In this document: positions 1 to 18,070 of the stretch, in pieces
How positions within the stretch are numbered: position 1 is the stretch's first letter
How the letters are laid out: each line of letters begins with the position of its first letter
IMG/VR virus record: IMGVR_UViG_3300005356_000004
Direction: 5' to 3' (one strand)
Source: an uncultured virus (IMG/VR IMGVR_UViG_3300005356_000004)
Lineage: Duplodnaviria > Heunggongvirae > Uroviricota > Caudoviricetes
DNA length: 64,000 nucleotides
Translations under genes and position numbers: made by a program
Notes under the pieces: model-generated
The model's database searches: none
The model's input: the letters and a program-made list of their open reading frames with translations, nothing else
Told to the model about the DNA's origin: nothing

Positions 1-45
1 CGATGAAGAGAAGGGGGGTGACTGCTCCTGCCATGAAACGGAATC

Positions 46-510: not shown

Positions 511-526
511 GGGAGTTGATCCTAGG

Positions 527-892
527 TCAGACGTAGTTGCCGGGCTGGGCTTGGTCCCACAGCCCGTTGAAGCCGCACGAGTAGCACAGCGGCGCGGCCT
601 CCATCTGGCCGACCTTGCGCCGGTACAACTTGTCGGAGCCGCAGTGGGGGCAGACCGTCGAGTTGCGCTGGCCCTCGCCACCGCGCCACTGGGCCATCAT
701 CTCGACCAGGTTGTGCATGGTCACCTGGCCCCGGCTCTGGGGCGCCTGAGGGGCCTCCCACGGATTCGGGGGGTTGGGGTACCCGGGAGGCGGGTACGGC
801 CCGCCTGGCGTCGCAGGAGACGTCTGCACAGGCCCCTGGGAGGGGGTCCGCTGGGGTCCCCCTCCCAGGTGTCGACTCCACCAGTCACTCAC
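527..892 (-). CDS. Pro-rich protein with C-terminal zinc ribbon
   Basis: CPHCGS...CYSCG gives two CxxC pairs; lies downstream of the polymerase in the same operon. Confidence 0.7.
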   Translation of the reverse strand: MSDWWSRHLGGGPQRTPSQGPVQTSPATPGGPYPPPGYPNPPNPWEAPQAPQSRGQVTMHNLVEMMAQWRGGEGQRNSTVCPHCGSDKLYRRKVGQMEAAPLCYSCGFNGLWDQAQPGNYV

Positions 893-1211
893 AGTGAACC
901 TCGACCACTCCTAGTGACTCGAACAGGTTGAGCACGGCGAGAGCGTAGGAGACCAGCCACAGCGACCGGTCCTCGGTGTCAACCGAGTCGAGGATCCCGG
1001 ACATGTCGTCAGCAGCACCGCCCATGACGGCAGCGATACGTGGATCCGTCAACAACCGGCGGATGCGCTCCAGGGAAGCGACCCGCTCGGCCTCGGAGAC
1101 GTCATCGGAAGCAGGCAGCAGCCCCAGGAGGTCGCACAGCACCGGGTCGGCGCTGGGGTGCGCGAGATCCAGCAGGAACTGCCGTCGCATGGCCAGTACC
1201 GAGATCATCAC
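885..1211 (-). CDS. hypothetical protein
   Basis: Strong GAGGAGGGAGG SD upstream; overlaps the next gene. Confidence 0.65.
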   Translation of the reverse strand: MMISVLAMRRQFLLDLAHPSADPVLCDLLGLLPASDDVSEAERVASLERIRRLLTDPRIAAVMGGAADDMSGILDSVDTEDRSLWLVSYALAVLNLFESLGVVEVHCE

Positions 1212-1223
1212 GCACCTCCCTCC

Positions 1224-3209: not shown

Positions 3210-3333
3210 TGACAACATCCTCGGTGGTGTGCTGGGAGGTGCCAGTTGCCCCGATCCACTGTGGCAGGACGGCTCCTACTGGCAATCGCCGCTTCCGTCA
3301 GGTGACGTACCCGGGCGCCCGACGATGGGCAGT

Positions 3334-4158
3334 TTACTTCCGCCGACGCGGTGGCTTGTGACCCCGGTCGTCCTCGTCCTGGTCCCAACCGGACGGGCGC
3401 TCGTCCTCGTCCACCATGTCGTCCACGACATCCTGAAGTTCCCTGGTCTTGGGGATCGGGATGATGTCGGACGTATAGAGGGACTTCATCGCCTTGTTGA
3501 TGGCAGCAGGCTTCGGGACCGTCACCTCGAAGTCCTCTTCCAGGTCCCGCTCGCGCACCGGGGAGATGAGCGGCGTCACCCGGTCGAACTTGCGCTTGGC
3601 CTCCGGCTTGGAGACGGCAAAGTAGAGACCGGGCCGATTGAGGGGACCGATCTTCTGGTCACGGGCGAACGTCATCAGCGGCCGAGTGACGGTGGGCGTG
3701 GTGTCCCACGACTTGTGGCTCACCGTGCCGTCGTCGGAGACGACGAAGATGTTGAATGCAGCAACGGCCTGTGGCTTGTCACCGACATCACACAGTGGGC
3801 AGTCCCGACCTACCGTCTCCAGGCAGGTGAAGGCACGGGTGCCGATGCCCGGACGCTCGACCCAGTGACGGCGGTAGGAGGCGTAGGGCGTGTCCTGCGT
3901 GAACCGCACGATCTGCGTCTGCGCCGACATCTTGAAGTTCTGGGCGAACGAGGACGTGGAGTCCATCGTCTGCTCGGCAGCACCCCAACCGGAACGGATC
4001 GTGACTTCTTCCTCTTCGTCATCATCGACGTCGTCGTAGTCATCATCATCCCGGGCTCGGGAGGCCGACTTAGACGGCGCCGCCTTGGCGGCAGAGGCCT
4101 TCTTCGTGGGCGCAGCAGTGGCAGCACCCGAACGGCGCACAACGCGCCTTGTTGCCAT
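3334..4158 (-). CDS. single-stranded DNA-binding protein, T4 gp32-like
   Basis: VRF...RRHWV...FTCL...CPLC zinc-binding pattern, basic N-terminal arm, acidic stretches; next to the polymerase. Confidence 0.75.
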   Translation of the reverse strand: MATRRVVRRSGAATAAPTKKASAAKAAPSKSASRARDDDDYDDVDDDEEEEVTIRSGWGAAEQTMDSTSSFAQNFKMSAQTQIVRFTQDTPYASYRRHWVERPGIGTRAFTCLETVGRDCPLCDVGDKPQAVAAFNIFVVSDDGTVSHKSWDTTPTVTRPLMTFARDQKIGPLNRPGLYFAVSKPEAKRKFDRVTPLISPVRERDLEEDFEVTVPKPAAINKAMKSLYTSDIIPIPKTRELQDVVDDMVDEDERPSGWDQDEDDRGHKPPRRRK

Positions 4159-4170
4159 TTGGTTCTCGTT

Positions 4171-4198
4171 TCTGGTGTCTGGTGTCTGGTGTCTGGTG
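4171..4198 (-). repeat. tandem heptamer repeat (TCTGGTG)x4, read as (CACCAGA)x4 in the SSB mRNA leader
   Basis: Four perfect copies at 4171, 4178, 4185 and 4192, ending 12 nt upstream of the ATG at 4158. Confidence 0.95.
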
Positions 4199-4249
4199 TT
4201 TGATCCTGCGGCCTTCCTCGGGTAGTCATCCGACTCAGGCGGCAAACGA

Positions 4250-4279
4250 AGAGTACCAGGACTAGGAATCCTGGTGCAA
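4250..4279 (-). promoter_or_regulatory. sigma70/HrdB-type promoter for the SSB-polymerase operon
   Basis: TTGCAC-18 nt-TACTCT with TG extension on the minus strand. Confidence 0.6.
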
Positions 4280-4444
4280 CGGCCTGGGCGCCTTCTTCTT
4301 GCCGTTGCTGCGGGTCTCCACCAACGACACCGTGAGACCAGGCTTGTGGAACGCCACCTGCAAGGCCCGCTCCATCTCTGCCCGCTTCCCCTCGGCGTCC
4401 CTGCTGTCCGTGCAGTCGTACGACGTCTCGAATCGGTAGATCAC
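4262..4444 (-). CDS. small hypothetical protein
   Basis: GTGA start/stop overlap with the upstream gene; GGAGG SD. Confidence 0.55.
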   Translation of the reverse strand: MIYRFETSYDCTDSRDAEGKRAEMERALQVAFHKPGLTVSLVETRSNGKKKAPRPLHQDS

Positions 4445-4881
4445 TTCACGCCCTCCGCTTGTAGCCGTAACCACCCGGTGATGATCAACCGGGTGAAGTC
4501 CTTGTCCGGGGCATTGCCCCGGCCCTTCAGCACGCCGGTCCGCTTGGCAGCGTTGATGACCACCTCGATCTGCGCCCGGCTGTAGAGCCGGTCACCCTGC
4601 TTGCTGCCCTGGGAGCGCGCTCCCCGCAGCGGTGCCCGGAAGGTGGCCGGTGGGATGATGCCGTGCTTCTCCCAGTGCCGGATGGTCCGCACCGATCTGT
4701 TGACGGCAGCAGCCAGGTGGCTGACCCGGAAGAACTCGGTGGGGATCCCGTTCACCTTGTAGGTCAGCGGGCGGGCATCCCATGTTGTGACGACAGGCTT
4801 GGGCTGGGCGCGCATCACGGGCTCCCGCTTGCCCGGGAAGTCCTTCAGATCGTTGAAGACCGAGAACGGGTCCTTACTCAC
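4441..4881 (-). CDS. MerR-like helix-turn-helix DNA-binding protein
   Basis: FRVSHLAAAVNRSVRTIRHWEKHGIIP...RLYSRAQI matches the MerR-type HTH pattern. Confidence 0.8.
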   Translation of the reverse strand: MSKDPFSVFNDLKDFPGKREPVMRAQPKPVVTTWDARPLTYKVNGIPTEFFRVSHLAAAVNRSVRTIRHWEKHGIIPPATFRAPLRGARSQGSKQGDRLYSRAQIEVVINAAKRTGVLKGRGNAPDKDFTRLIITGWLRLQAEGVK

Positions 4882-5209
4882 GCCCCGGGTCTTCCTTGTA
4901 CTTGCCCGCGTGCAGCATCACGACGTTGCGCTCCTTGTAGACGAGCGCGTCACCACCGTAGAACTCCTCGACGTGGGCGTCCAAGGCTTCCGCCAGCCGG
5001 AAGGTGATCGGTGAGTACCGCACCTCGGCGCAGTGGATCGCTGCGTTGGCCTCGTCCAGCGCCTTGAAGTGCCGAAGTGCCTTGGCACATGCTTCCGCCA
5101 ACAGGCTGTTGCACTCCAGCATGTCGACCGGACGAGACTTGGACTTAGGTGGCTTGGTCAACCCCGCTCCTACGTAGTGCCCCGGCTGATATTCTTGATC
5201 TGACATCAC
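4874..5209 (-). CDS. hypothetical protein
   Basis: ORF overlapping both neighbours in the minus-strand operon. Confidence 0.6.
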   Translation of the reverse strand: MMSDQEYQPGHYVGAGLTKPPKSKSRPVDMLECNSLLAEACAKALRHFKALDEANAAIHCAEVRYSPITFRLAEALDAHVEEFYGGDALVYKERNVVMLHAGKYKEDPGRE

Positions 5210-5664
5210 CTTGCCACCTTGATCGGGACGAGCGCGAAGGTCTCACTCACGTCGTACAGGGACTCCAGTTCCTTGTTGGTCAGACGCTCCTCGAACGCCG
5301 CCGCCAGGATGGCGTCCTCGTCCAGCACAACGACGGTCTTGGTGCAACGCTCCAGCAACTTCTTCTCCCGCAGCAACCTCTCAGCCCGCTCAGCGTTGAG
5401 CCTGCGGCTGACCCGCTTCTCCCGCTTGACGCCCCGGAGCACACCACCCACCGGCTCGTCGTCATCGAAGTAGTACCAACAGTGCCCGTCGCTGTCGGCC
5501 TCGACCTGCTCGGCCAGCGCTGCCTTCAGCACCCCCTTGCGCTTCTCGGCTTCGGTGGTGAAGTCCTTAGCGGTGCTGTCGGTCTTGAACCACTCCTCGG
5601 TGGCCTTGCGGATGTCGATGACAACACGCTTCGGCTCCGACCTTCTCTTCACTCTGGTTGCCAT
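5206..5664 (-). CDS. hypothetical phage protein (helical, replication-associated)
   Basis: Start MATRVKRR follows a TTGCGA...TATGGT promoter-like sequence; coding-like composition. Confidence 0.65.
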   Translation of the reverse strand: MATRVKRRSEPKRVVIDIRKATEEWFKTDSTAKDFTTEAEKRKGVLKAALAEQVEADSDGHCWYYFDDDEPVGGVLRGVKREKRVSRRLNAERAERLLREKKLLERCTKTVVVLDEDAILAAAFEERLTNKELESLYDVSETFALVPIKVAR

Positions 5665-5809
5665 ATGGCACCGAACCATAGCACACAGATTGCCAATCGC
5701 AACCACCCTCTGGAAGACCCTTACAGGGGACTTGACTTACTCTGTCCAGTACTTGCCTGAGCCCTGTCATGTAGTCCCTAGAGATACCCCTACCCCGTAT
5801 GCTTCTTTA

Positions 5810-7393
5810 CTAGTGCTCCTGGAGGAACCGCCTAAGCGTGTCCAGGCTCAGCGTAAAGCCGCCCTTGGTGTCACGGTGTCGGCCGTCGATGAAGGCCTCG
5901 GCCACCAGACGCTTCTGCTCCAGCATCTCGTATTGCCGCTCCTCGATGGTGCCCTGAGTGAGCACGCTGATCACGTTGACGTGGGGCCAGACCGAGGAGA
6001 TCCGGTCGATCCGGGCCACGCGCTGGGCATATGCCCCCGCACTCCACGGCAGGTCATACGAGATCAGGTAGTTGACATGCGGCAGGTCCACTCCGTACTG
6101 CCCGGCGTCTGATGACAGCAACACACGGGTCTGCTTCTTGAAGGCATCGAGGGCTTGCGCCCGGCCGTGGGCGTCGACATCACCGGTGATGTAGGCAACA
6201 CGGTGCTTCTGCTTCTGGATGGCCCGACCGAGCATCGCCAGCATCGGCTTGAAGAACGAGAAGACCACCACCCGGTTCTGCGGGTGCTCCGACAAGATCT
6301 CGTCCACCAGTTCGACCGTCGTCTTCAACTTGGCGTCCTCGGCCAGCAGGGCGTCGGTGATCAAGCCCTCGGCCTTCAGCGAGGAGGCGTAGCGGGAGCC
6401 CTTGGAGGACTCCGGGTCATCGAACTGGCTTGCTGACGTCATCAACAAGGCCGGGTGGTCGCAGATCATGCGCATCGCCAGGACCCGGGACATGATCTCG
6501 CCCTTGAACTTGCCCGATTCGGTGTCGTCATCATCACCGTAGTGGGCTGCGAGATCGAAGCCTCCTGATGGTGACATCATCTCCAGCACAGCCAGCGTGT
6601 CACTGACGACAAAGTCATACAACCGCCTCGACACCGCTGGCAGGTCCACCGTGACGTGGGTGGTGATGATCTTCGGCAGGTACTGCTCGATGTCCTTGCG
6701 GCTCTTGCGGTACATCACCGGGGCCATGGCCCGCTTCAGCACGTCCAGGTTGCGGTACCGCTTGGGACGCCCGTAGTTGTCCCGGAGGATGAAGGTCCGG
6801 TCGAACATCTTGAAGTCGCCCAGCACTGATGGGTCAACAAACTCCATGATCGAGAACAGTTCCTCGGGCCGGTTCTCCACCGGCTGGCCCGAGAGGGCGA
6901 AGCGGTAGGGCAGGTCCCGGGCGAAGGCCTTGATGGCGCGGGAGCGCTTGGCCTTGAAGGACTTGATGACTGTTGCCTCATCAAGGACCACGAACTGAAT
7001 CTTGCCGTCCAGGAAGTAGTGCACCATCGAGGTCCCGTTCTTGGTGCTGAACACGTCAGGGTTGATGACGTTGTAACGGAACCTTGTTGCATGCTTCAGT
7101 TGGAACTGCTTGTTGGCCAGATCACCGTCGATGATCTGGACCGGAGCACCCGTCTTGTCGGTGATCTCGTCGTACCACTGGTACTTCAGGGTGTTGGGCA
7201 CGATCACGAGCCCACAGGACACCTCGCCCATGCGGTGCAGCGTCTCGATCGTCGCCAGCGCGGTGAGGGTCTTGCCCGCGCCCATCACGAGTGCCAGCAA
7301 CTGGTTGCCGCGCTCGATCATCCGGTCGTGAGCCTCGACCTGGTAGGGCCGAGGCTCCAGCGCTAGAGGCCAAGTCTCAGCGTGTCCTGCCAC
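5810..7393 (-). CDS. SNF2-family (SF2) helicase
   Basis: PRPYQ Q-motif, MGAGKT Walker A, LDEAT, LSGQPVEN, GVDL, YDLPWS...QRVARIDR. The start (GTG 7393) is uncertain. Confidence 0.93.
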   Translation of the reverse strand: MAGHAETWPLALEPRPYQVEAHDRMIERGNQLLALVMGAGKTLTALATIETLHRMGEVSCGLVIVPNTLKYQWYDEITDKTGAPVQIIDGDLANKQFQLKHATRFRYNVINPDVFSTKNGTSMVHYFLDGKIQFVVLDEATVIKSFKAKRSRAIKAFARDLPYRFALSGQPVENRPEELFSIMEFVDPSVLGDFKMFDRTFILRDNYGRPKRYRNLDVLKRAMAPVMYRKSRKDIEQYLPKIITTHVTVDLPAVSRRLYDFVVSDTLAVLEMMSPSGGFDLAAHYGDDDDTESGKFKGEIMSRVLAMRMICDHPALLMTSASQFDDPESSKGSRYASSLKAEGLITDALLAEDAKLKTTVELVDEILSEHPQNRVVVFSFFKPMLAMLGRAIQKQKHRVAYITGDVDAHGRAQALDAFKKQTRVLLSSDAGQYGVDLPHVNYLISYDLPWSAGAYAQRVARIDRISSVWPHVNVISVLTQGTIEERQYEMLEQKRLVAEAFIDGRHRDTKGGFTLSLDTLRRFLQEH

Positions 7394-8280
7394 GTCCTCT
7401 TCAAGATGCGGTCGTCGGGGCAATCTCCAGGGTCCTTCCAGGCGTTGGCCTTCCAGGTCCCATCGTAGCCCCACACCAGCACCGCCGTGCCAGTGTTCCG
7501 TAGCCTCTGAATCGCCTGTTTGGTACCGGCTCGCCCAGCGTCGTCGTTGTCCAAGGCCAGCACAGTGACGGCCGTGTGTCGTGACAACAGACGGCACTGC
7601 GTGTCAGAGATGAACGCTCCCATGCTGGAGACGGCAGGGATGCCCGCCTGGTAGAGCCGCACCGCGTCCAGCGGGCTCTCGACCACCGCCAGCCGGTCAT
7701 GCATGCGCATGGCGTGCAGGCCGAACAGGTACTGGCTCTTCTCCAGTTCCTTGGGCTCGTTGTAGGCCTTGATGCCACCCGCCTTGCGCTGCCAGCCCAT
7801 CAGCCGACCCTTGTGGTCCCGGATCGGCATCACCCACGTCCGGTTGATCGGATCGAATCTGATTCCGTAAACATTCACGGCTTCCAGATCCAGGTTCCGC
7901 CGCTCCAGCAGCACCCGCTTCACGTCCACAAACCGGTTGCTCAGCGTCCACTCGTGGATCGTGAAGTCGACCAGCGCCTCACGCTTCTCTTCGGTGAGCC
8001 GTTGGACCGCCTTGGTCAGCGCCGCCGTCTTGGTCTGCTCGACCAGGTCTTGTGGTGGTGGTGTCCCGGTGAGCCAGATGACCAGATCGTTGAACGTCGG
8101 GTGCCACGAGCACGAGAAGCAGTTGCCGACGCCCTTGGCCATGTTGAAGCCGAAGGAGGGATGGGAGTCCGGGTGCCCGACGCGTTCCACGTGGGCCGGG
8201 CAGACGGCATTGATCTCGTCGCCGTCGACCCTCAGCACTTCCAACCCGATGTCGATGAGGTAATCGGAAAGGTCAGGCAT
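7363..8280 (-). CDS. DNA primase (CHC2 zinc finger plus TOPRIM)
   Basis: CPAH...HPSF...CFSC zinc finger; VVESPLDA and LALDNDDAG TOPRIM motifs; KDPGD. Confidence 0.92.
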   Translation of the reverse strand: MPDLSDYLIDIGLEVLRVDGDEINAVCPAHVERVGHPDSHPSFGFNMAKGVGNCFSCSWHPTFNDLVIWLTGTPPPQDLVEQTKTAALTKAVQRLTEEKREALVDFTIHEWTLSNRFVDVKRVLLERRNLDLEAVNVYGIRFDPINRTWVMPIRDHKGRLMGWQRKAGGIKAYNEPKELEKSQYLFGLHAMRMHDRLAVVESPLDAVRLYQAGIPAVSSMGAFISDTQCRLLSRHTAVTVLALDNDDAGRAGTKQAIQRLRNTGTAVLVWGYDGTWKANAWKDPGDCPDDRILKRTWQDTLRLGL

Positions 8281-9538
8281 CGTCCTCATCCTCGTCAAAG
8301 GTCAGCGAGTTGTCGTCATCATCAGAACCAACTTCCTCAACCAGGCCCGTATCCAGGTCCCAGGAGACATCGAACTCGATGCCCTGTGGTCCAGCCCGGT
8401 TTCCAAGGATGCGCATCGTAGACCACTTGGGGTTGTCGGGGTTGGACTCGACGCCTACCACCAGGTCAGCGTCCTGGGAGAACGCCGAGGTGTAGCCCAT
8501 GCCGAACAGGTTGGTCCGGCCCTTGGTGGTCTTGGAGTGCAGCGTCTGCGTTGTTACGACAACACCGATCTTCTCGGTCTTGGCCAGACGCTTCAGCGCC
8601 CGGCTGATGTTGGTCAATGGTTGCGTACCAGATGACCCCGGATCGCCGGTCACGTCATCAGTCATCAGGTAGATGCCGTCGATGCACAGCACATCGGCAT
8701 TTGTTGATCGAACCAAGGCCTGGAGGCTCGACACCGTGGAGTGCCCGTAGGTGTCTTGTACACCCATCAACGGGTGCAGCGCCTTGCGGACGGCGATCCC
8801 CTTGTTGATGTTGGCATAGTCGGCGTTGGTGAACGTCTTCTTCATCACGCTGCGGTAGGGGACCTTGCCCCACAGCGTGGCCAGACGCTCGACCTGCTCG
8901 ACATTGGACATCTCGAAGGTCACGAACACCACGCGCCCGCCCTGCAACTGGGCCGTGGAGGCGCAGTGCAGCAATGTCCACGACTTCTTGGCCTTGGCCA
9001 GACCGGTGAACACCACATACTGCTCGGGCATCAGCCCGCTTGTGTACTCATCAAGCGTCGGAAAGCCGTAGGAGAGGCCGTTGTTGAACACGCCCTGCTT
9101 CCACTCCTCGGCGGCTGCCTTCAACGCCACCAGGTAGTCCACCGTCAGCACCGGAGACGTCTCGATGATCGAGGACATCAGGCCCTGGTTCAGGAGTGTC
9201 GACACGCTGTCAATCTTGGTTACGCCATCAATGCTGATCATCTCGACGGCCTTGCTGATCGTCTCCTGAAGCATGACCATCTTGCGCCGTGCGGCCAGAG
9301 AGTCGATGAAGTACTCGACCGGCTCGTCCGGCTCCTCGATCTCATAAGCCGGATAGTTGTCAGCAACAACCTCCACGGTCGGGCTCAACCCGTAGGACTG
9401 CCAGTGCTTGACCATGTACTGCCACACCTTGCGGTGCTCGTCGTCGTTGAAGAAGTGCTCCGTCACCCGCCGCTGCATGGGGATGTCCATGGTTCCGTTG
9501 ACAAGCACCGAGGCGATGAGCCCGCCTTCGATGTCCAT
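8273..9538 (-). CDS. dnaB: DnaB-like replicative helicase
   Basis: YGFPTLDEYTSGL, P-loop region GLAKAKKS, FEMS, CIDGIYLM, ISRALKRLAK, SQDADLVV, NRAGP. Confidence 0.9.
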   Translation of the reverse strand: MDIEGGLIASVLVNGTMDIPMQRRVTEHFFNDDEHRKVWQYMVKHWQSYGLSPTVEVVADNYPAYEIEEPDEPVEYFIDSLAARRKMVMLQETISKAVEMISIDGVTKIDSVSTLLNQGLMSSIIETSPVLTVDYLVALKAAAEEWKQGVFNNGLSYGFPTLDEYTSGLMPEQYVVFTGLAKAKKSWTLLHCASTAQLQGGRVVFVTFEMSNVEQVERLATLWGKVPYRSVMKKTFTNADYANINKGIAVRKALHPLMGVQDTYGHSTVSSLQALVRSTNADVLCIDGIYLMTDDVTGDPGSSGTQPLTNISRALKRLAKTEKIGVVVTTQTLHSKTTKGRTNLFGMGYTSAFSQDADLVVGVESNPDNPKWSTMRILGNRAGPQGIEFDVSWDLDTGLVEEVGSDDDDNSLTFDEDEDDA

Positions 9539-9951
9539 CAGAACTCTCCCTCTTTGGGCTGATAGCCCATCTGGCCGTAGCGCAAGATCCGAATCGGGTC
9601 GGAGTCCACGATCATCCGGATGTCATGCAGGCGCCACTTGATCGACTCGCAGAACGTCTCGTAGTCCACAGACTCGATCGAGCGCACGTCCACGTGGTAC
9701 ATGTCGAGCCAGTTGGCCGCGAAGTCCGCCACCTCCTGACCCAGGAATGTTGTGACATCAACAGGCACGTTGTTGTAGGCGTACCGGAAGATGTTCTTCA
9801 GCGAGATGGTCGACCACTCCCACTCGGCAGGGGACTGGAGTTGCTGCCGTCGCAGTACGCCCTGCGCCTTGTACTTGGGTGTTGTCAGAACACCTTCCAG
9901 GATGACCACGATGGCCGGATTGTCGACCTGTGTCAGATCACCATGTTCCAT
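9538..9951 (-). CDS. hypothetical protein, possibly degenerate HAD-like fold
   Basis: IVVILEGVL resembles HAD motif I without the catalytic Asp; coupled to dnaB. Confidence 0.6.
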   Translation of the reverse strand: MEHGDLTQVDNPAIVVILEGVLTTPKYKAQGVLRRQQLQSPAEWEWSTISLKNIFRYAYNNVPVDVTTFLGQEVADFAANWLDMYHVDVRSIESVDYETFCESIKWRLHDIRMIVDSDPIRILRYGQMGYQPKEGEF

Positions 9952-10501
9952 CGAGGATCACCGTTGCGCTATGGGCGTTCAGCCACTGCTCGAACCCTTC
10001 CGGCACCCGAGCCACCTCGTCGGCCACCGTGACGATGGTCGGCAGCCCGTTCCCCATCCTCGTGTGCATCAATGCCTCCAACAGCCTTCCCTCATGCTCT
10101 GACCCCAACCGACAGATGTCATCAACACAGACCACCGAACAGGTCCGCAGCAGCGAATAGATCGCTGCGTCGTTCTCGTCCGGATCGTACGCCTGGACGG
10201 AGCGCAGGATCTGCTCCAGATCCGGCGAAGTGAACCACGCCCCCGTACGACTCTTGCTGATGAACCAACGCCACACTGCTGTCGCCAGCAACGCCATCGG
10301 GCTTCCGATCGGCCCGATAATCCGCAACGGCTCCGCAGCCGGGCGAGGACGACGCTTCAACACCGGAGAACGCAATGCCCACGACTTGACGAGCGAGATC
10401 ACATCCTCATCGATGCCCGCCTCCCGGCAGCGCTTCATGGTGGCGGTGGCGTACTGCTCCGGCGGCGGGCAGATGATCGACAACTGGCCAGGATCGATCA
10501 C
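9938..10501 (-). CDS. DnaC/IstB-like helicase loader, degenerate P-loop
   Basis: VVCVDDI Walker B and R..NGLPTIVT motif; sits between the initiator-like gene and DnaB. Confidence 0.65.
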   Translation of the reverse strand: MIDPGQLSIICPPPEQYATATMKRCREAGIDEDVISLVKSWALRSPVLKRRPRPAAEPLRIIGPIGSPMALLATAVWRWFISKSRTGAWFTSPDLEQILRSVQAYDPDENDAAIYSLLRTCSVVCVDDICRLGSEHEGRLLEALMHTRMGNGLPTIVTVADEVARVPEGFEQWLNAHSATVILDGTW

Positions 10502-11496
10502 GACGACTCCTTCTGGGTCCGCTGGGCCGCTGCCCGTCTTGCTGCTGTCACATCAGCACGCTCGGCCTTGCCCTCCGGGCTGTGGACGTCGGTCCCCTTC
10601 AAGTACGACGAGCGCCGGGAAGCGTAGGCATCCCACCGACTGGCGTTGCCGGGCACGCCTCCCTGCTTGGCGAAGTTCCGGAAGGACTCGATGATCTGCT
10701 CCTCGCTGAAGCCGCGATCGAGCATCCACTTCAGCAACCCACGCTGAGCGTTGATGTTGGACACGGCCGGGCGGTTGATGTTGGCGGTGATGTTCTCGAA
10801 CTCGTTCGACAGACGCGTGATGGGGTTGCGCGACTCCTTCTTGGGGGCTGGGGGAGGCAACTGGTCCTGGTTGTTGTCACGCCAGTCTGGATCACCTCTC
10901 AACTTCCACCTTCCGCGAGGCTGGGCAGGCTTCTCAACTTCACCGGGTGCACTCCCCCACGGTTCCACCTCGGCCTCCTTGTCTTTGTTGTCACTTCTTC
11001 CCGCGGGCGGCGCAGCCGCCCGCCCGCTTCGCGGGAGTTCAGTCTTCTTCTTTGGTGCACAGGCATACCCTGTCGTAGACAGGGGATCCGCCGCTGGGAG
11101 CGCGGTGGGGACCGCGTTGCTCACCCCCGATATGATGCCATCAACACCCGCATTCCAGACCCATTCGGGGATGGCCCAGCGGGGTCCTCCAGCCCGCTTT
11201 CCAGACAGAGTTGACTCAACCAGACCCATCTTCCGGAGGTCGAGGATGGCATCCCGTACGGCCACCGGTTTGGCCGGGCAGACGGCAGCGATGTCCTCGT
11301 AGGTCATGAACTGGATCTGCCGCGACTGCAAGGTCTCGATCGCGCCGTAGAGCAGATCGAGCACCCGGGCTTGGAGGAGGGTCAGTGGGTACCGGACCGT
11401 AAGAGCCCTGGCCAGACCTATCCCTGCGTAGCCGACCCACCGCCCAGAGAGAGCCCTGTGGATCCCATTGCCAGTTGGTTCAGGTTCGCTGTACAA
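10498..11496 (-). CDS. HTH-containing replication initiator-like protein
   Basis: TTG start at 11496 with AAGGAAGG SD 8 nt upstream; wHTH-like MTYEDIAAVC...VRDAILDLRKMGLVES; directly upstream of the loader and helicase. Confidence 0.65.
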   Translation of the reverse strand: MYSEPEPTGNGIHRALSGRWVGYAGIGLARALTVRYPLTLLQARVLDLLYGAIETLQSRQIQFMTYEDIAAVCPAKPVAVRDAILDLRKMGLVESTLSGKRAGGPRWAIPEWVWNAGVDGIISGVSNAVPTALPAADPLSTTGYACAPKKKTELPRSGRAAAPPAGRSDNKDKEAEVEPWGSAPGEVEKPAQPRGRWKLRGDPDWRDNNQDQLPPPAPKKESRNPITRLSNEFENITANINRPAVSNINAQRGLLKWMLDRGFSEEQIIESFRNFAKQGGVPGNASRWDAYASRRSSYLKGTDVHSPEGKAERADVTAARRAAAQRTQKESS

Positions 11497-11497
11497 T
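11468..11497 (+). promoter_or_regulatory. strong sigma70-type promoter overlapping the start of the initiator-like gene, on the opposite strand
   Basis: TTGCCA(11468-73)-18 nt-TACAAT(11492-97). Confidence 0.7.
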
Positions 11498-11502
11498 GCG
11501 AT

Positions 11503-11566
11503 CGCCTTCCTTCGCAGTGGATGGGCGCTGACCCCCCGGCCTGACAAGCCGGGGGGTCCTTCGTTG
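11503..11566 (+). ncRNA. candidate ~60-nt cis-antisense small RNA
   Basis: Bounded by the promoter above and an 11-bp terminator hairpin; no ORF; covers the initiator SD on the opposite strand. Confidence 0.45.
11530..11566 (+). terminator. intrinsic terminator-like hairpin
   Basis: GACCCCCCGGC-ctgacaa-GCCGGGGGGTC followed by CTTCGTTG. Confidence 0.65.
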
Positions 11567-11638
11567 TGCTGTGAGGGGCGACTGTACACCCACCTTGGCC
11601 GGTGGCGAGACCTAAGGTTCCGATGCGGGAGGTACGCC

Positions 11639-11824
11639 ATGAGCCCGCACCAGGCAACGCTTCACACCCGCCACGACCATCATCCCGCCGGAGAGCCCGC
11701 GGTCCACATCGTGTGCCTCTGCGGGTGGTCGCTGACCGTCGAGGGCTACTCCATCGACACGGCCAACATGTGCTTCCATCAGCATGTCACGAGGCCGGAG
11801 GGAGCGCCTACCGTGTCTCCGTGA
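11639..11824 (+). CDS. small His/Cys-rich hypothetical protein
   Basis: GGGAGGT SD then ATG; CxCGW...H..H pattern. Confidence 0.5.
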   Translation: MSPHQATLHTRHDHHPAGEPAVHIVCLCGWSLTVEGYSIDTANMCFHQHVTRPEGAPTVSP

Positions 11825-12278
11825 GACGGCAGATCACCCCGGCGCCGTGCAACTTGCTCATGATCCCGGCCCATGTGTCCGACTTGGTGAAGTGCACGTC
11901 GTAGTTGATGACACCATGGTCCTTCACGTTGCACATCGTCTCCAGGATCCTGGCCTGGCTTGATGTCATCAGCCGGGCCATCTCCCGAGACGTCCAGGAC
12001 ACGTGTGTGCTCCCGAACTTGGTGTGCAGCCGAGGCTCGTTCCAGTAGTGCCCGGCAGCCAGCAGCCGCAAGATCCGCTGCGCCTGGTCGTAGGTGCGCT
12101 CCTGCTCAGCCAGCAACCTCTCGCGGTAGGCGTCGAAGCGCTCCTGGATGTCAGCCGGGAGCCGACCATCGGCATCCTCCAGGATCTGGAAGGTCTCCAC
12201 CTTGTCTGGTGGCTCAGTCGGGCGACCATTCACGTACTGCGGGAGGACGTACACGCTCTGAGGCCGACGACGAGACAC
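11808..12278 (-). CDS. hypothetical protein
   Basis: AAGGAG SD upstream of the GTG; coding-like composition. Confidence 0.6.
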   Translation of the reverse strand: MSRRRPQSVYVLPQYVNGRPTEPPDKVETFQILEDADGRLPADIQERFDAYRERLLAEQERTYDQAQRILRLLAAGHYWNEPRLHTKFGSTHVSWTSREMARLMTSSQARILETMCNVKDHGVINYDVHFTKSDTWAGIMSKLHGAGVICRLTETR

Positions 12279-12317
12279 AAAGGCTCCTTGATGTCATTGA
12301 CATTGACAATGGAAGCA

Positions 12318-12347
12318 AGGAGGCCCCCTTCGAGAAGGGGGCCTCCT
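12318..12347. terminator. intrinsic terminator hairpin
   Basis: AGGAGGCCCCCTTC-ga-GAAGGGGGCCTCCT just after the stop of the 12353-12796 gene. Confidence 0.75.
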
Positions 12348-12352
12348 GCGGT

Positions 12353-12796
12353 TCAAGCCGGGGCGGCGACGTGTCGGGTGGGCTCCCGACGATCCGAGCG
12401 ATGGAGGGCGTTGTTGCCCTTTCCGGAGCGCTTGTTGCTGCCCATCTTGGAACCCCTCCGGGAGCCGAGTGGTCGCTGGGTGGGCGGAATCAACGTCACC
12501 CGGAACCCACAAGGGAACTGCCCGCTCTCATCGAAGGTCCGGATGAGCGCCCGCTCGTTGCTCGGGATCTCGTACCGGACCTTCACGTTGGGGTTCTTGC
12601 TGAAGACCACGACGGCGATGGTGGCCCCGATGCTGACACTCAGGATTCCTCGCTCGCGCCGCAGTCGTTGAGCAATGGCACACGCTGTCGGATCCTTCGG
12701 TGACGCCTTGGCGTTGTCCTGGGCTCCTATAGCGACGGACAGGGGCTTCGTGGCGTCGACGTACACCACACCCTTGCTGATCTGCCTGCTACCCAT
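12353..12796 (-). CDS. basic hypothetical protein
   Basis: GAGGA SD then MGSRQ; DPTACAIA motif; followed by a terminator. Confidence 0.65.
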   Translation of the reverse strand: MGSRQISKGVVYVDATKPLSVAIGAQDNAKASPKDPTACAIAQRLRRERGILSVSIGATIAVVVFSKNPNVKVRYEIPSNERALIRTFDESGQFPCGFRVTLIPPTQRPLGSRRGSKMGSNKRSGKGNNALHRSDRREPTRHVAAPA

Positions 12797-12905
12797 AGTT
12801 ATCCTCTCGTTGGTGGAGTGGCCACACGGTACACGCGGCATACGCTATCGTCAAACAATCGGAATCCTGATAACGTAGTGGCGTGACCACAACCAGTGAA
12901 CCCAC

Positions 12906-13163
12906 GTGACTGTCCTCATCGCTGCCGGAAGCACCTTCGTCATCGTCAAGGCGATCCGGTATGTTGTGACAGCAGCACCCTCGTGGTTCTTCTTCCTGCT
13001 GTCGGTGGCAACAAGCACTCTGTGTGCCTGGTTGATCGTCAAAGAACCACTGTGGGCGTTGGGTGTGACGGCCGTCACACACTTTCTGTTCCGAGCGGAC
13101 GTGCTGTTGCAGGCCGCGGCCGACTGGGTTAGGGTTTCGGTTCTACAGAAAGCCCGACGCTAG
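12906..13163 (+). CDS. small membrane protein (holin-like candidate)
   Basis: 85 aa with 2-3 hydrophobic segments and a basic C-terminus. Confidence 0.5.
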   Translation: MTVLIAAGSTFVIVKAIRYVVTAAPSWFFFLLSVATSTLCAWLIVKEPLWALGVTAVTHFLFRADVLLQAAADWVRVSVLQKARR

Positions 13164-13171
13164 GAGCCACA

Positions 13172-14083
13172 TTGCTGTACGTCATCGCCGGAGATGGTTC
13201 CGGCAACAAGACCGAGATTGTCGCTTCACTGAACGATCTCCGTGAAGCGGCTGCGATGAAGGACGCCGAGTTCTGGCTGATCTTCGTCGGCAAGGACGAG
13301 CCCACCAAGACCGATGGTGTCATCATCAACTGGGCCTCGGAGAACGGGGTCTGGTTCGAGGTGATCCACTCCGACGAAGACGTCACCGCTGAGGATGGCC
13401 CCTACGCCGGAGGCCAGAAGGTCCACGTCGTCAAGGACGGCTACCGCAAAGCCCTCGGCATGCTCACCAAGGCCGAGGAGGACGTCGCCATCCTGGCGCT
13501 GCCGATCAACGCCGAGGAGAGCGTCGAGGAGGACGCCGACCTGTTCTCGTTCCTGGAGCGGGCCATGGATGCCCAGATCAACGTGCTCCTGTTGAACAAC
13601 CAGTTGGCCGAACTCGAACTCGAAAGCGGCGACGAGGAGGAAGCCGAAGAAGAAGCCGAAGAAGAGGACGAGGACGAGGAGTCCGAAGACGAAGACGAGG
13701 ATGACGAGGAAGACGAAGACGAGGAGGAAGAGGCCGAAGACGAGGAGGAGGCCGAGGAGGCCGAAGCCGAGGAGCCGGTCTTCACGAAGGCCTACCTCAA
13801 CAAGATGTCGACCCTCGAACTCCAGAGCCTCGCCAAGGGTCAGAAGATCGACATCCGCGGCCTCGGCAAGAAGGATCTCGTCACCGCGCTGGTCAACCTG
13901 GCCAACGGCGAGGTCGTGGTGGGTGCCGAGCCCGCCACCAAGGCCCCTCGCAGCCGCAAGGCGGCGGCACCCAAGGCGGCAGCGCCCGTCGAGGGCGTGT
14001 ATGCCCTCGTGGTGGTCCACGTCAGCGGCATGATCTACACCCGCACGCTGCCGGTTGACGACGCTCTGGCTCTCATCGCCTGA
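13172..14083 (+). CDS. highly acidic protein with Asp/Glu tract and Rho-N/HeH-like helical module
   Basis: AGGAG SD plus TTG; ~50-residue D/E tract; ELQSLAKGQKIDIRGLGKKDLVTAL. Confidence 0.75.
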   Translation: MLYVIAGDGSGNKTEIVASLNDLREAAAMKDAEFWLIFVGKDEPTKTDGVIINWASENGVWFEVIHSDEDVTAEDGPYAGGQKVHVVKDGYRKALGMLTKAEEDVAILALPINAEESVEEDADLFSFLERAMDAQINVLLLNNQLAELELESGDEEEAEEEAEEEDEDEESEDEDEDDEEDEDEEEEAEDEEEAEEAEAEEPVFTKAYLNKMSTLELQSLAKGQKIDIRGLGKKDLVTALVNLANGEVVVGAEPATKAPRSRKAAAPKAAAPVEGVYALVVVHVSGMIYTRTLPVDDALALIA

Positions 14084-14167
14084 CTTGTCGGATACAACAC
14101 AGTCCGGTAGAGTGGTCCTCACCGGCCTTGGGTTGGTTGCCTCTGTGGTGGAGGCAGGGAGAACTGA

Positions 14168-14207
14168 GAAGGCCCCGGAGTCCCTCGACCCGGGGCCTTC
14201 CTTTGTT
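14168..14207. terminator. terminator between convergent transcription units
   Basis: GAAGGCCCCGG...CCGGGGCCTTC followed by CTTTGTT. Confidence 0.75.
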
Positions 14208-14222
14208 GTCAGTGTCAATGCG

Positions 14223-14861
14223 TCAGGCAGCGATCATCGCCAGGTTGTGGTCGTGCTGCTCCGGCACCGTGATCAGCCGGTCGTAGATCGCCAGATGGGC
14301 GACCTCGGTGGTCGTCGGACAGGATTGTGTCAGCGAAGGGCTTGTGCCCAGGAAGATCCGGTCCGTGGCCACCGGTGTCGGCTTGACACCAGTCGGAGCG
14401 GTCGACGCCCCGTTGCTCAGGACCTCGTTGATGTAGATGTTCGGAGCCGCCACCGCCACCGCCTGGGTCTGGAGCACGACATACTGCCAGGTGCTCAACG
14501 CCAGCGCCGCGCTGGCCGTGCGGTTCGCCCAGAAGGCCCCGGCCTGGTTATAGAGGTTGAACGACACGAATCTGCTGGCGTCAACAGTGACCGTCCAACG
14601 GACCTGCCCGGAGAGTATGCCGCACGAGACGATGGTCGAAGCGGTGCCCGCCGTCATCTTGATCCAGAACTCGGCGGTGTGCTCGGTGTTGTGGAAGTCG
14701 TAGATGGCTCCACAGATGGAGGATGTCTCAGCAATCGAGCCGTCACCGTGGACAGCGTTGTCACCGTTGGGCAGCACCGCTGAGTCGATCGTCCAATCGA
14801 CGGTGTTGGCGATCGCGAGGTGCCGAGCACCCACGGCGTAGTCGGTGAAGGTATTGGGCAT
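14223..14861 (-). CDS. LamG/concanavalin-A-like domain protein (probable receptor-binding component)
   Basis: TAEFWIK, TWQYVV, IYINEV and EVAHLAIYDRLIT...H motifs typical of Laminin_G_3. Confidence 0.75.
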   Translation of the reverse strand: MPNTFTDYAVGARHLAIANTVDWTIDSAVLPNGDNAVHGDGSIAETSSICGAIYDFHNTEHTAEFWIKMTAGTASTIVSCGILSGQVRWTVTVDASRFVSFNLYNQAGAFWANRTASAALALSTWQYVVLQTQAVAVAAPNIYINEVLSNGASTAPTGVKPTPVATDRIFLGTSPSLTQSCPTTTEVAHLAIYDRLITVPEQHDHNLAMIAA

Positions 14862-14873
14862 TGAGGTCTCCTA

Positions 14874-17800
14874 CTAGGTCCACGCGATCAACACTTCACC
14901 GTGACCCTGGATCCCACCACCACTTGTATGTGTAACCAGGCTCACGCCACTGCTCGACTTGAAGTACGACGAACCACCACCGCCGCCACCTTCACCACCG
15001 CTGAGATCGTTTCCTCCACCCCCACCGCCCCACCAGCCAGCGCCAGCACCACCGGGGTAGCCGCTGAGGGCGTAACCACCAGAGGAGCCACCCACACCCT
15101 GTGTGCCTGCTGCACCCGGAACACCGCCTCCACCGGCAGCACCACCGGCAGACTGCGTGCCACCTCCACCTTCCAGCCCAGCAGGGCCACCACCGGCAGC
15201 GCCCGTGGGATACCCACCGACACCACCGGGACTGCCCTGCCCCATACCTCCACCACCAGCGGCAATCACGAGCGCGTCAGCCACTGCGTACGGAGCAGCC
15301 CGGACATCGGACATCCCGCCGCCACCGCCTGATGTGTTTACAGGAGCAGTGCTCTTGACCGAGCCGTTGCCACCGCCGTTCCAACCCCCAGCCGCTGAGT
15401 TGGTCGAGTCATCCGCTATACCGGCACCACCGACGTTGACTTGGAAGATCTGCCCTGCTGTCACCGGAACCGTACATTGGATGAGGCCACCCTTGGCTCC
15501 CTGACCAAGGCCATTCTTGTAACCAGCACCAGCAGCACCTTTGGCCGTGACCGTGAGCGTGGTTGCACCCGCTGGCACCGCAAAGTACTGCGGCCCACCC
15601 GTGTAGGCGAAGGTCACCGGAGAGGTTGGAACCGTCCACTCGATGATGACGGTCGCTCCGAACCCAGCCGGTCCACCGCCATCCGTTCCTTCGAGGAACA
15701 CCGCTGATGCATGTACACGTGACGAACCACCGCCACCACCACTGCTGCCGACACCAACGGCTGCGTTGCCGCCGCCGCCGCCTTGCCAGCCGCCACCGCC
15801 GCCACCGCCGTAGCGGGTACCGGAGGCCTGGTAGCCGGAGCCACCTTGGCCGAAGGCGGCGTCACCGTTGCCACCGGTACCCGCAGCCGTCTGGGTACCG
15901 CCCGTGCCACCGCCGATCCCACCCGTGCCAGTGCCATCCTGGCCCACCGTGACACCGCCGATACCACCCCCACCGCTTGCACCTGGTGACCCGCCACCAG
16001 CAGCCACCAGGAGCCGATCGTTGAGGCTGTAGGGCGTACGACGGATGTCGCTGGAAGCACCACCTGCTCCACCAGTACCACCAGGGTTGGGATCGTGACC
16101 ACCGAGACCACCGTCAGGCCAACCGACTGACGGCGTGGAGCGTCCATGACCGACACCGCAGCCACCGACCTGGATCTGGATGACTTCCAAGGGCGTCACC
16201 GGGACAAGGGCCTTGATGTAGGCACCACGAGGACCGTTGCCAGCGCTCGGCTCTGCTCCGGCTCCACCAGCACCACCGGTCATGGTGACAGTGAGGCTGG
16301 TGACACCAACAGGCACCGTGAAGTACTGCATGGCGCCCGTATAGACGAAGGTGTGCGGCGAACCCATGTCGTCCAACTTCCAGTACGACAGAGGTGTATC
16401 CGACAACACCGAAGCGGCGTATGAGGGATAGGTGACCGGGTCCTTGCTACCCAATGGCCAGTAGTCGATCGGGAGCCCTTCGGTCCGGATCAAGGTGAAG
16501 TAGTCAGCAGGTGCCACATAAGTCTTCGCGCCCAACGTCCAGTACGACAGTGGGTTGTCCGCCATCACCACGGTGAAGTACGAGTCCGGGTCCACCAGGG
16601 TGGTGATGGTGTCAGTGGCATGGTCGGACTCACCGATGCCCACCACACCCCAGACCTCGATGGTGTGATCAGCACCAGGGGTAAGCGTCATGGTGGTGTA
16701 CTCGACGGTATCCGGTGGCAGTTCCACAGGAGTCCCACCGTCGATGCTCACCCAGAGGCTGTCGTACACGGTGTCCGGCGGGATCTCCCACGTCCAGGTG
16801 GCAGTGTCCGTGGTGATGGAACCAGGCACCACGGCCAGCGACATCGGTGGGGGCGGGGCCAGGATCGGATCCTCCCAGTCCTTCACCGGGTGGTTGGTGT
16901 CCTTGGGGTCGAGGTGGTCATAGATCACCTCGTACCGGGCGCCCTCGGGGATCCACTGCTTGATCAGACCGTTCTCCCCGAACATGCGCTCATGGGCCAC
17001 GCCGCGGTTGTTGTAGAAGAACGAGTACGAGGCGTGCGAGGTGCTGTGCCACAGGAAGTCGTCCGGGAACGAGTGCAGCGAGTCGCCGTCGAAGTAGTCG
17101 AAGTCGGCGTACCCTGTTGACCACAACACATCGTCAATGTCAATGGGTCCGTCTACTAAGAATGACAGCGCCGAGCGTGCCGCCCGGTCAGCCACCGGGA
17201 TGTACTGCCGCAGTGAGATCCACGACGCCTGCCCGACCGGGGACTCCGGAAGTGCGACGACCGAGGACAAGACCTGCGAGCGCTGGCCGTCCTCGTCGTA
17301 CATCGTCACCTTGGCCTGGAAGGTCGTGGCACCCTGGGAGCGCACCTTCAGCGCCACCGTGGTCATCCCGTTGGGGATCGGCACCAGCAGGGACTGGATC
17401 TCGCCTCCGGCGTCGGTGCGGAGGAACGAGAGATCGCCTTCAACCTCACGGGTCATCACCGCGTTGGCACGCCAGCCGAACAGCGAGCCGAAGAAGGTCG
17501 GGTTGGGGATCCAGTTGATCCGCTGCGGGTAGAGGTAGATCTTGGTGACTCGGGACGGCGCCCAGTCCATCGGGCCGAACTGGATCAAGGTGGCGAACCA
17601 GGCCGGTCCAGCCACAGGCGTCGCCGTCAGGTACGAGAACAGCCGTGTGTCCACATCACCATCGGGCTCCCGTGGTGACGACAGGATCGTCCCCGGGTAC
17701 CACACGTCATTGACTTCCAGGATGTAGATCCACGGGTTGGTTACACCACCAACCGTGCCCACGTAGTAGAAGGCAACGGCCTCGACGTACACCGGGTTCG

Positions 17801-18068
17801 TGTTGTCGAACTCGAAGTTGCCGATCGAGCGGATCGTGGTCACCCCAGTGGTACCGTCAACAGTGGCCGCGTAGTCAGCCGGTGGTGCGAGACCACCTGG
17901 TGTGTAGCCGTAACCATAGACCTCCTGGATGCCGTCCTGGTCCAGCAGGTCATCGATCGAGCCATCGGCTGGCCCAAGTGCCTGATGCAGCAAGACGGCG
18001 CCCAGCGTTCCTGATACCGGAAGCGGTGTGGCTCCCACATCGTTGAGGAAGGTGTTGTTCCAGGTCAT
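14874..18068 (-). CDS. tail fibre/baseplate-associated protein with FN3 domain and two glycine-rich domains
   Basis: N-terminal INWIPNPTF carbohydrate-binding-like module and YFDGD motif; FN3-like segment; two TFxYTG.QYFxVPxG...GGGG repeats. Confidence 0.85.
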   Translation of the reverse strand: MTWNNTFLNDVGATPLPVSGTLGAVLLHQALGPADGSIDDLLDQDGIQEVYGYGYTPGGLAPPADYAATVDGTTGVTTIRSIGNFEFDNTNPVYVEAVAFYYVGTVGGVTNPWIYILEVNDVWYPGTILSSPREPDGDVDTRLFSYLTATPVAGPAWFATLIQFGPMDWAPSRVTKIYLYPQRINWIPNPTFFGSLFGWRANAVMTREVEGDLSFLRTDAGGEIQSLLVPIPNGMTTVALKVRSQGATTFQAKVTMYDEDGQRSQVLSSVVALPESPVGQASWISLRQYIPVADRAARSALSFLVDGPIDIDDVLWSTGYADFDYFDGDSLHSFPDDFLWHSTSHASYSFFYNNRGVAHERMFGENGLIKQWIPEGARYEVIYDHLDPKDTNHPVKDWEDPILAPPPPMSLAVVPGSITTDTATWTWEIPPDTVYDSLWVSIDGGTPVELPPDTVEYTTMTLTPGADHTIEVWGVVGIGESDHATDTITTLVDPDSYFTVVMADNPLSYWTLGAKTYVAPADYFTLIRTEGLPIDYWPLGSKDPVTYPSYAASVLSDTPLSYWKLDDMGSPHTFVYTGAMQYFTVPVGVTSLTVTMTGGAGGAGAEPSAGNGPRGAYIKALVPVTPLEVIQIQVGGCGVGHGRSTPSVGWPDGGLGGHDPNPGGTGGAGGASSDIRRTPYSLNDRLLVAAGGGSPGASGGGGIGGVTVGQDGTGTGGIGGGTGGTQTAAGTGGNGDAAFGQGGSGYQASGTRYGGGGGGGWQGGGGGNAAVGVGSSGGGGGSSRVHASAVFLEGTDGGGPAGFGATVIIEWTVPTSPVTFAYTGGPQYFAVPAGATTLTVTAKGAAGAGYKNGLGQGAKGGLIQCTVPVTAGQIFQVNVGGAGIADDSTNSAAGGWNGGGNGSVKSTAPVNTSGGGGGMSDVRAAPYAVADALVIAAGGGGMGQGSPGGVGGYPTGAAGGGPAGLEGGGGTQSAGGAAGGGGVPGAAGTQGVGGSSGGYALSGYPGGAGAGWWGGGGGGNDLSGGEGGGGGGSSYFKSSSGVSLVTHTSGGGIQGHGEVLIAWT

Positions 18069-18070
18069 GG

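Follow-up and report, generated by a model that had tools for sequence, protein, structure and literature searches.

Does a large bacteriophage restrain the synthesis of its own replication initiator with a countertranscript? The question is raised by one locus in a 64,000-nucleotide (nt) stretch of DNA from an uncultured soil virus of the class Caudoviricetes (IMG/VR record IMGVR_UViG_3300005356_000004), which we refer to as the window. Here an initiator-like gene on the minus strand (10498-11496) and a small open reading frame (ORF) on the plus strand (11639-11824) diverge from a 142-nt control region (11497-11638). On the plus strand a promoter-like sequence overlapping the initiator start codon, the complement of the initiator's Shine-Dalgarno (SD) sequence and a terminator-like hairpin follow one another within about 100 nt. 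An original prediction, made from the letters of the sequence, read this arrangement as antisense-RNA control of the plasmid copy-control kind. The sequence observation is confirmed: promoter, anti-SD 5' end and terminator-like hairpin all lie where the prediction had placed them, in the proposed geometry. As to their meaning, the best reading appears to be a cis-antisense RNA of about 63 nt that damps translation of the initiator, a reading to which we give slightly less than an even chance.

A promoter-like sequence over the initiator start codon

The plus-strand sequence TTGCCA-18-TACAAT (11468-11497) agrees with a sigma-70-type promoter at 10 of 12 positions. It is the best match of the window and the sole promoter-like match between 9000 and 14000. 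Its -35-like hexamer TTGCCA (11468-11473) falls within codons 8-10 of the initiator-like gene, and its -10 hexamer TACAAT (11492-11497) overlaps the minus-strand TTG start codon (11496-11494), as had been claimed. Sites of this quality are rare: both strands of the window hold three at 10/12 or better, against 0.7 +/- 0.73 expected (100 Markov simulations, maximum 2).

Seven nt past the -10 lies G11504, the likely first nucleotide of a transcript, and the following eight positions, CCTTCCTT (11505-11512), are complementary to AAGGAAGG on the minus strand, the SD located 8 nt upstream of TTG 11496. A transcript from about 11504 would open with a 5' G followed by CCUUCCUU, so that its nt 2-9 would be the exact complement of the initiator's SD, a correspondence that hinges on TTG 11496 being the start. 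As expected of an initiator countertranscript, the putative promoter faces the 5' end of its target from the opposite strand.

The minus-strand ORF (10498-11640) offers five in-frame candidate starts. By SD energy TTG 11496 ranks first at -13.9 kcal/mol, followed by TTG 11547 (-6.2 kcal/mol), ATG 11640 (-5.2 kcal/mol), GTG 11589 (-2.8 kcal/mol) and GTG 11364 (-0.5 kcal/mol); the 5th percentile of the background is -10.1 kcal/mol, with a 15-nt anti-SD motif as the yardstick. The stretch ahead of the first conserved helix in the homologous proteins P0003 (329 amino acids, aa) and P0004 (296 aa) is about as long as in the 332-aa product read from TTG 11496, and a start at GTG 11364 would cut into this helix. 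SD energy and N-terminal length both point to the predicted start, and we are fairly confident that TTG 11496 is the true one.

A terminator-like hairpin and the predicted antisense RNA

The original prediction had placed an 11-base-pair (bp) GC hairpin with a pyrimidine tail at 11530-11566, and one is found there. The hairpin (11530-11558) has 10 GC pairs among its 11 and a loop reading CTGACAA on the plus strand, and its calculated energy is about -25 to -27 kcal/mol on both strands. It begins 32 nt past the -10 and 26 nt past the predicted start, has an energy of -25.2 kcal/mol in this orientation, and is the top-ranked terminator-like match, with the tail CTTCGTTGTG. Perfect stems of at least 11 bp number five in the 64 kb, this one included. 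If the three promoters of 10/12 or better were placed at random, the probability of finding one 60 nt or less upstream of any of these five hairpins would be about 0.014, by hand arithmetic from these two counts.

Among the strong hairpins of the window, all at -25 to -27 kcal/mol, the plus-strand tail of this one is the most U-rich. The stem is followed on the plus strand by an imperfect U-tract, CUUCGUUGUG (11559-11568), and on the minus-strand side by AGCGCCCAUCC, which contains no U-tract. Passages of PMC3993855 describe efficient termination by mycobacterial RNA polymerase at imperfect U-tracts, but not at hairpins lacking a U-tract. Since a U-tract is found on the plus side only, the hairpin should, by this mycobacterial rule, be able to terminate transcription in the plus orientation and not in the minus. 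Apart from a transcript started at the promoter just upstream, no plus-strand partner for such a terminator is obvious, because a crude ORF map contains no convincing plus-strand gene within 527-11496; the lone plus-strand ORF of that interval, 7937-8263, has a non-coding-like GC pattern and is nested in the primase gene. Antisense control would account for a U-tailed terminator placed 26 nt past a strong promoter on a strand with no convincing genes upstream.

The predicted cis-antisense RNA would extend from 11504 to 11567 (plus strand, about 63 nt between its two predicted ends) and comprise the 5' G, the anti-SD, a small 5' helix and the terminator hairpin. Folding of 11504-11570 yields this small 5' helix and the hairpin at -35.6 kcal/mol (z -2.89), a stability reached by 0 of 200 shuffled sequences. 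The transcript had been described as ORF-free, which holds for ORFs of at least 20 aa and fails for a 7-codon mini-ORF. This mini-ORF runs from ATG 11521 to TGA 11544 (M-G-A-D-P-P-A-stop) behind a weak SD, covers the hairpin's 5' arm and has its stop codon in the loop; its translation could be coupled to read-through, or it could be meaningless. A tRNA search found none. Two further motifs were considered and dropped: the TGTACA boxes that flank the hairpin are not significantly enriched (10 in the window against 6.1 expected), and the palindrome GCGATCGC between SD and start occurs twice against 2.5 expected.

A distant relative with a parallel layout

Relatives of the initiator-like protein are few. 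A full HMMER scan of 1.84 billion representatives returned four proteins at E 1e-3 or better, and a word-index search returned one cluster from the single sequence and two from a profile. Scans of viral, genome and metagenome contigs with the protein, its profile, P0003 and P0004 yielded only the same phage and two other loci, L007 and L008; tblastn against phage and plasmid collections yielded no match. The other copies of the phage (L001, L002, L005 and L006) are identical throughout the region, and four DNA runs compared at 80% likeness contained no variant letters.

A search of relatives for the same promoter and hairpin opposite the initiator's ribosome-binding site, suggested with the original prediction, has one positive outcome, at L008, the one distant homologue whose upstream DNA it covered, where an antisense extended -10 and a strong hairpin are found. 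The L008 homologue, P0003, is 26% identical to the initiator-like protein of the window, and a gene for a DnaC-like loader (IstB_IS21, E 2.9e-6; phrog_50, E 1.3e-9) directly follows it on the 3' side, as in the window. The divergent gene upstream encodes a secreted-looking protein with a likely start at ATG 2130, unrelated to ORF 11639-11824. Between the two divergent genes lie 137 nt, which include a GC hairpin with a perfect 15-bp stem (2177-2211), 57 nt ahead of the initiator homologue. Around this palindrome, within 119 nt (2162-2280), lie three TGCTAnnnT motifs of the extended -10 type: one directed towards the divergent gene (2170-2162), one towards the initiator-like gene (2219-2227), and an antisense one, TGCTATCGT (2280-2272), that overlaps codons 2-4 of the homologue. 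L008 contains four TGNTANNNT sites against 1.43 expected, three of them within these 119 nt, and 6 of 200 shuffles reach four.

From the antisense -10 of L008, transcription would start at about 2265, 1-2 nt ahead of the anti-SD CCACCUC, and the hairpin (2211-2177) follows. Between -10 and anti-SD there are 8 nt in L008, against 7 nt in the window. A 100-nt antisense stretch of L008 is predicted to fold into two stem-loops at -53.8 kcal/mol (z -4.34). By hand arithmetic, the chance that one of the eight TANNNT sites of L008 falls in a suitable 15-nt interval is about 0.016. As the divergent genes of the window and of L008 are unrelated, the layout of promoter and anti-SD seems to go with the initiator gene; antisense control would explain how L008, with a different neighbour, comes to have a similar antisense start.

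The two loci differ in where the hairpin stands. In L008 it lies between the two divergent -10s, upstream of the sense -10 and outside the sense leader, unlike in the window. There, the candidate sense -10 TACAGT (11581-11586, minus strand) would place the hairpin within a leader of about 78 nt; this -10, also part of the original prediction, exists and is weak, reaching 8/12 when paired with TCGCCA-16. Folding of the sense leader reproduced the prediction that its SD is partly paired (mean unpaired probability 0.38), with the pairing partner just downstream of the hairpin. These features bear on the idea that the hairpin serves the sense side, or acts as a DNA element, and that the plus-strand promoter match is unused. 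It could then be a stabiliser of the 5' untranslated region or an SD-hiding stem-loop, a barrier to read-through between upstream minus-strand genes and the replication genes, or a palindrome between divergent promoters. The position of the L008 hairpin and the SD pairing in the sense leader agree with such roles, as do three hairpins of the same energy that follow minus-strand genes of the window (12318-12347, 27963-27990 and 44312-44339), and promoter-like sites at 9/12 are at chance level window-wide (eight in 1-60000 against about 8.4 expected). We nevertheless regard this alternative as unlikely. On the minus side, which lacks a U-tract, the mycobacterial data predict no termination, and the hairpin lies 17 nt from the SD, so that a hairpin that did terminate would have left no room for a promoter. 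A 10/12 promoter directly upstream on the U-tail side is improbable by chance, by the placement probability given above, and no iterons or other origin-like repeats occur near the gene beyond 10-mers at chance level.

The same observations bear on whether the elements stand together by accident. In a GC-rich genome, the AT-richer 5' end of a gene might mimic a promoter beside a generic GC hairpin. The stem is indeed generic: at least 123 stretches of viral contigs contain its pattern, CCCCCCGGC-N5-9-GCCGGGGGG, and among these matches none except the same phage shares flanks or genes with the locus; moreover, the first 11 codons of the initiator-like gene have a low GC content at third positions (GC3) anyway (5/11). 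The joint placement of promoter and hairpin, the alignment of the predicted 5' end with the anti-SD and the parallel layout in L008 all argue the other way, and we consider mere juxtaposition very unlikely. With one independent locus in partial support, antisense control is a plausible interpretation of these sequences.

The divergent gene and the weight of the evidence

The small plus-strand ORF (11639-11824) encodes a Cys/His-rich orphan protein of 61 aa behind the SD GGGAGG and is probably a real gene. Its GC3 is 0.82 (binomial p 0.0014), its GC content is higher at first than at second codon positions, its SD energy is -11.7 kcal/mol, and gene callers predict it on 30 contigs. No relatives of the ORF were found, and its language-model neighbours carry no annotation. 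At its 3' end it overlaps a convergent minus-strand gene (11808-12278) by 17 nt (11808-11824); any plus-strand transcript reading through would be antisense to the whole of this 156-aa gene.

Within or at the edge of the 142-nt control region there are only three TANNNT hexamers (TACAAT on the plus strand, TACAGT on the minus, TAAGGT on the plus), no excess over composition. TANNNT is about 2.5-fold rarer than in dinucleotide shuffles, both in the window (146 sites, 362 expected) and in L008 (8 sites, 22 expected). We considered promoter avoidance as the cause and set it aside, since GC3 codon bias probably accounts for most of the depletion. The remaining hexamers cluster in intergenic regions, for instance eight within 12800-12877.

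Several observations weigh against the antisense reading. The U-tract is interrupted, with five U in its first nine nt, and because it is imperfect, transcription is likely to continue into ORF 11639-11824, which looks truly coding and for which no convincing separate promoter is seen. In the predicted RNA, the 5' helix partly sequesters the anti-SD (mean unpaired probability 0.28). Other gene calls put the initiator start at GTG 11589 or GTG 11364, and codon-position GC fails to separate the candidates, GC3 being 0.66 over codons 1-44, 0.73 in the in-frame stretch upstream and 0.76 in the remainder of the gene. Rfam returned no family at gathering score, the best match being ftsZ-DE (18.6 bits against 72.2, E 1.1). 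Since all copies are identical, covariation gives no information. Among the 24 runs listed for the sequence, none is an RNA run. The comparison with L008 covers two loci, the TG extension in L008 was picked out after the locus had been inspected, and the L008 hairpin, which lacks a U-tract in both orientations, may not terminate.

Part of this evidence favours assigning the plus-strand promoter to the small gene, as its sole promoter or as a distal second one, with the hairpin serving as a leader attenuator or 5' stabiliser. The overlap with the initiator's ribosome-binding site would then be a side effect of a compact divergent region, with an influence on the initiator possibly exerted mainly by face-to-face promoter interference. 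The coding signals and SD of the small gene and the read-through expected at an imperfect U-tract are in line with this assignment, and the only -10 close to the gene, TAAGGT (11613-11618), is weak, with neither a -35 nor a TG extension. In the predicted fold of the 157-nt read-through transcript, the 5' tail pairs with sequence just beyond the hairpin, and the mini-ORF ending in the loop could couple translation to read-through. Yet much of the transcription bound for the ORF would be halted, 26 nt past the start, by a -25 kcal/mol hairpin whose U-tail is the best of the window, and the whole 157-nt leader is not unusually structured (z -1.01, 34 of 200 shuffles as stable). Furthermore, the unrelated divergent gene of L008 is provided with a separate extended -10 just past the hairpin, and yet the antisense -10 is present there too; the small gene itself is an orphan. 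On this balance we find a pure leader function rather unlikely. The two functions are in any case compatible, since a leader terminated at the hairpin is still an antisense RNA.

The initiator-like protein and its gene neighbours

The product of 10498-11496 consists of an orphan winged helix-turn-helix (wHTH) N-terminal domain, a low-complexity linker and a conserved C-terminal helical domain. Searches at E 0.01 or better assign it to no Pfam and no PHROG family. Sub-threshold wHTH matches cover residues 44-101 (E 0.003-0.03), and its language-model neighbours carry HTH_36 or Phage_rep_O. The AlphaFold model has a mean predicted local distance difference test (pLDDT) score of 45.8, with residues 220-300, approximately, at 70-85. 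Fold matches of the C-terminal domain include DnaD-like 2zc2 (Z 5.5, root mean square deviation 2.7, 63 residues) and SPP1 G39P 1no1 (Z 5.1), which are below the reliable level, and lid domains of AAA+ proteins match about equally well. The proposed identity as an initiator thus draws weak support from these wHTH and DnaD/G39P-like matches, from the neighbours and from synteny with a loader gene, and none from family assignments; the label 'initiator-like' is reasonable rather than proven.

In L007, positions 27-350 encode the C-terminal domain of the family only, the 5' end being cut by the contig edge. The 285-aa protein that follows (347-1204) matches 'replication initiation O-like' phrog_391 at E 2.3e-4, which again places the domain beside replication genes.

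Downstream of the initiator-like gene, the minus strand (7363-10501) carries genes for a DnaC-like loader (9938-10501), a protein of no known function (9538-9951), a DnaB-like helicase (8273-9538) and a primase (7363-8298). The first three junctions, from the initiator-like gene onward, are overlaps of 4, 14 and 1 nt, in keeping with the operon that the original prediction had drawn from initiator, loader and helicase. A gene for an SNF2 helicase lies further along.

The U-tails of the other strong hairpins mentioned above are poorer than that of 11530-11558. One of these, a 13-bp GC hairpin (12318-12347, -26.9 kcal/mol), lies directly past the minus-strand gene 12353-12841. Past it on the minus strand stands a 13-bp palindrome, ATGTCAATGACAT, within a direct repeat of TGTCAATG; immediately beyond come the SD and the GTG from which the 156-aa gene 11808-12278 starts. 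The interval 12279-12352, hairpin included, looks like a terminator plus operator. The two others (27963-27990 and 44312-44339, minus strand, about -25 kcal/mol) lie just past tail-tube and major-capsid-like genes. They have no U-tract and are probably 3'-end or attenuator hairpins of highly expressed late genes.

The phage and its host

The phage is a myovirus, as its sheath, tube and baseplate genes show. The longest contig carrying its genes measures 103,073 bp, which puts the phage at about 103 kb, and its GC content is 60-66%. The host is probably an actinobacterium. The main clue is a WhiB-family gene (59790-60146, plus strand; 27.7 bits against a cut-off of 23.6), and 304 of the 335 phage records matching the helicase come from Mycobacterium, Streptomyces, Gordonia or Rhodococcus phages. 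A gene for a MerR-type helix-turn-helix protein lies at 4441-4881 on the minus strand.

Close relatives of the phage were not found: by its helicase, viral contigs give only the same phage and cultured phages are at most 26% identical, megablast of 10400-12400 against phages gave no match, and the nearest virus record, G001, has no coverage of 1-20000 of the window. The phage encodes its own DNA polymerase, primase and helicases, a replication set that is typical of large lytic-type phages. ParA, ParB, integrase and repressor families are absent from the 68 ORFs scanned, which represent 64 of about 103 kb. The original prediction had suggested a plasmid-like or carrier state. This suggestion finds no support in a myovirus of about 103 kb with its own replication set, and the missing integrase, cited in its favour, says little when 68 ORFs from 64 of about 103 kb are considered.

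Proposed mechanism

From these elements we infer three steps: firing of the antisense promoter, termination at the hairpin and repression of initiator translation by pairing. A housekeeping-type promoter on the plus strand, within the first ten codons of the initiator, would fire away from the gene body. RNA polymerase would start near G11504, producing an RNA that opens with the exact complement of the initiator's SD, and a large share of transcripts would end near 11566, after the stable GC hairpin and the imperfect U-tract. The product, untranslated and about 63 nt long, would contain two stem-loops and be perfectly complementary to the initiator mRNA leader. Pairing would begin probably via the hairpin loops or the 5' tail, and would either occlude the ribosome-binding site or create a duplex open to RNase. 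Less initiator would be made, and through translational coupling across the 4-nt overlap the DnaC-like loader would be lowered as well; convergent transcription from the two facing promoters may add interference. A lytic-type myovirus would probably use such control to limit or time the expression of replication genes, rather than to set a plasmid copy number.

Relation to known systems

The R1 CopA and pT181 countertranscripts restrain Rep synthesis, and CopA and pT181 RNAI stand for the general class to which the predicted RNA would belong. Its closest known counterpart is RNAII of pMV158, the repB countertranscript: a short cis RNA opposite an initiator leader, with an intrinsic terminator and complementarity to the translation-initiation region, all of which are predicted here. 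Passages of PMC4485353 describe RNAII as an inhibitor of repB translation and its 5' tail as critical for binding and for this inhibition; in the predicted RNA the 5' tail is the anti-SD. Unlike pMV158, the replicon is a myovirus of about 103 kb, with no relationship to RNAII in sequence or in Rfam, no CopG-like partner identified and no sign of copy control.

Phages have short cis-antisense RNAs of their own, which serve as secondary controls of development. The sar RNA of P22 covers the ribosome-binding site of ant, and transcription of lambda OOP begins a short way upstream of the initiator gene O. In its treatment of antisense systems, among which CopA/CopT is listed, the review PMC5415839 states that cII mRNA is cleaved by RNase III as a result of OOP action and that sar inhibits anti-repression. 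Unlike the predicted RNA, sar and OOP target ant and cII and not an initiator, and they belong to temperate phages of enterobacteria. The arrangement of facing promoters also has a precedent in a temperate phage switch, that of pR and pL in coliphage 186. Similarly, the starts predicted here, at about 11504 and 11574, face each other over some 70 bp; unlike in 186, a terminator-like hairpin stands between them, and no repressor or integrase was identified among the 68 ORFs.

In Bacillus subtilis, according to passages of PMC12112137, an antisense RNA over the dnaA 5' untranslated region regulates DnaA production, and the predicted RNA would likewise overlap the 5' untranslated region of a replication initiator; that initiator, in contrast, is chromosomal and unrelated, and the host belongs to another phylum. 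For extrachromosomal prophages of mycobacteriophages, PMC7157519 distinguishes RepA-based and RNA-based origins; in its section 7 no such countertranscript is mentioned, and in the paper the word 'antisense' turns up only in the reference list. In the literature searched, we found no description of a countertranscript against the initiator or replication module of a large virulent-type actinophage.

Conclusions

Antisense control of initiator synthesis is the classic logic of plasmid copy control, and the class of mechanism is well known. A broader proposal, which we put forward tentatively and with more doubt than confidence, is that a countertranscript module travels with an undescribed small family of initiator-like proteins in actinobacterial phages and mobile elements, and that in this large lytic-type myovirus it acts as a timer or governor of the replication genes. 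Members of such a family would combine a wHTH domain with a DnaD-like C-terminal domain and always have a DnaC-like loader gene on the 3' side, and an antisense promoter in the start codon would give an RNA that begins with the anti-SD. If the antisense reading is true, countertranscripts are a means by which phages hold back or time the synthesis of their own initiator, and the compact cassette of promoter, anti-SD and terminator would be usable in Actinobacteria. It would also give functional work on an orphan initiator family its first point of entry.

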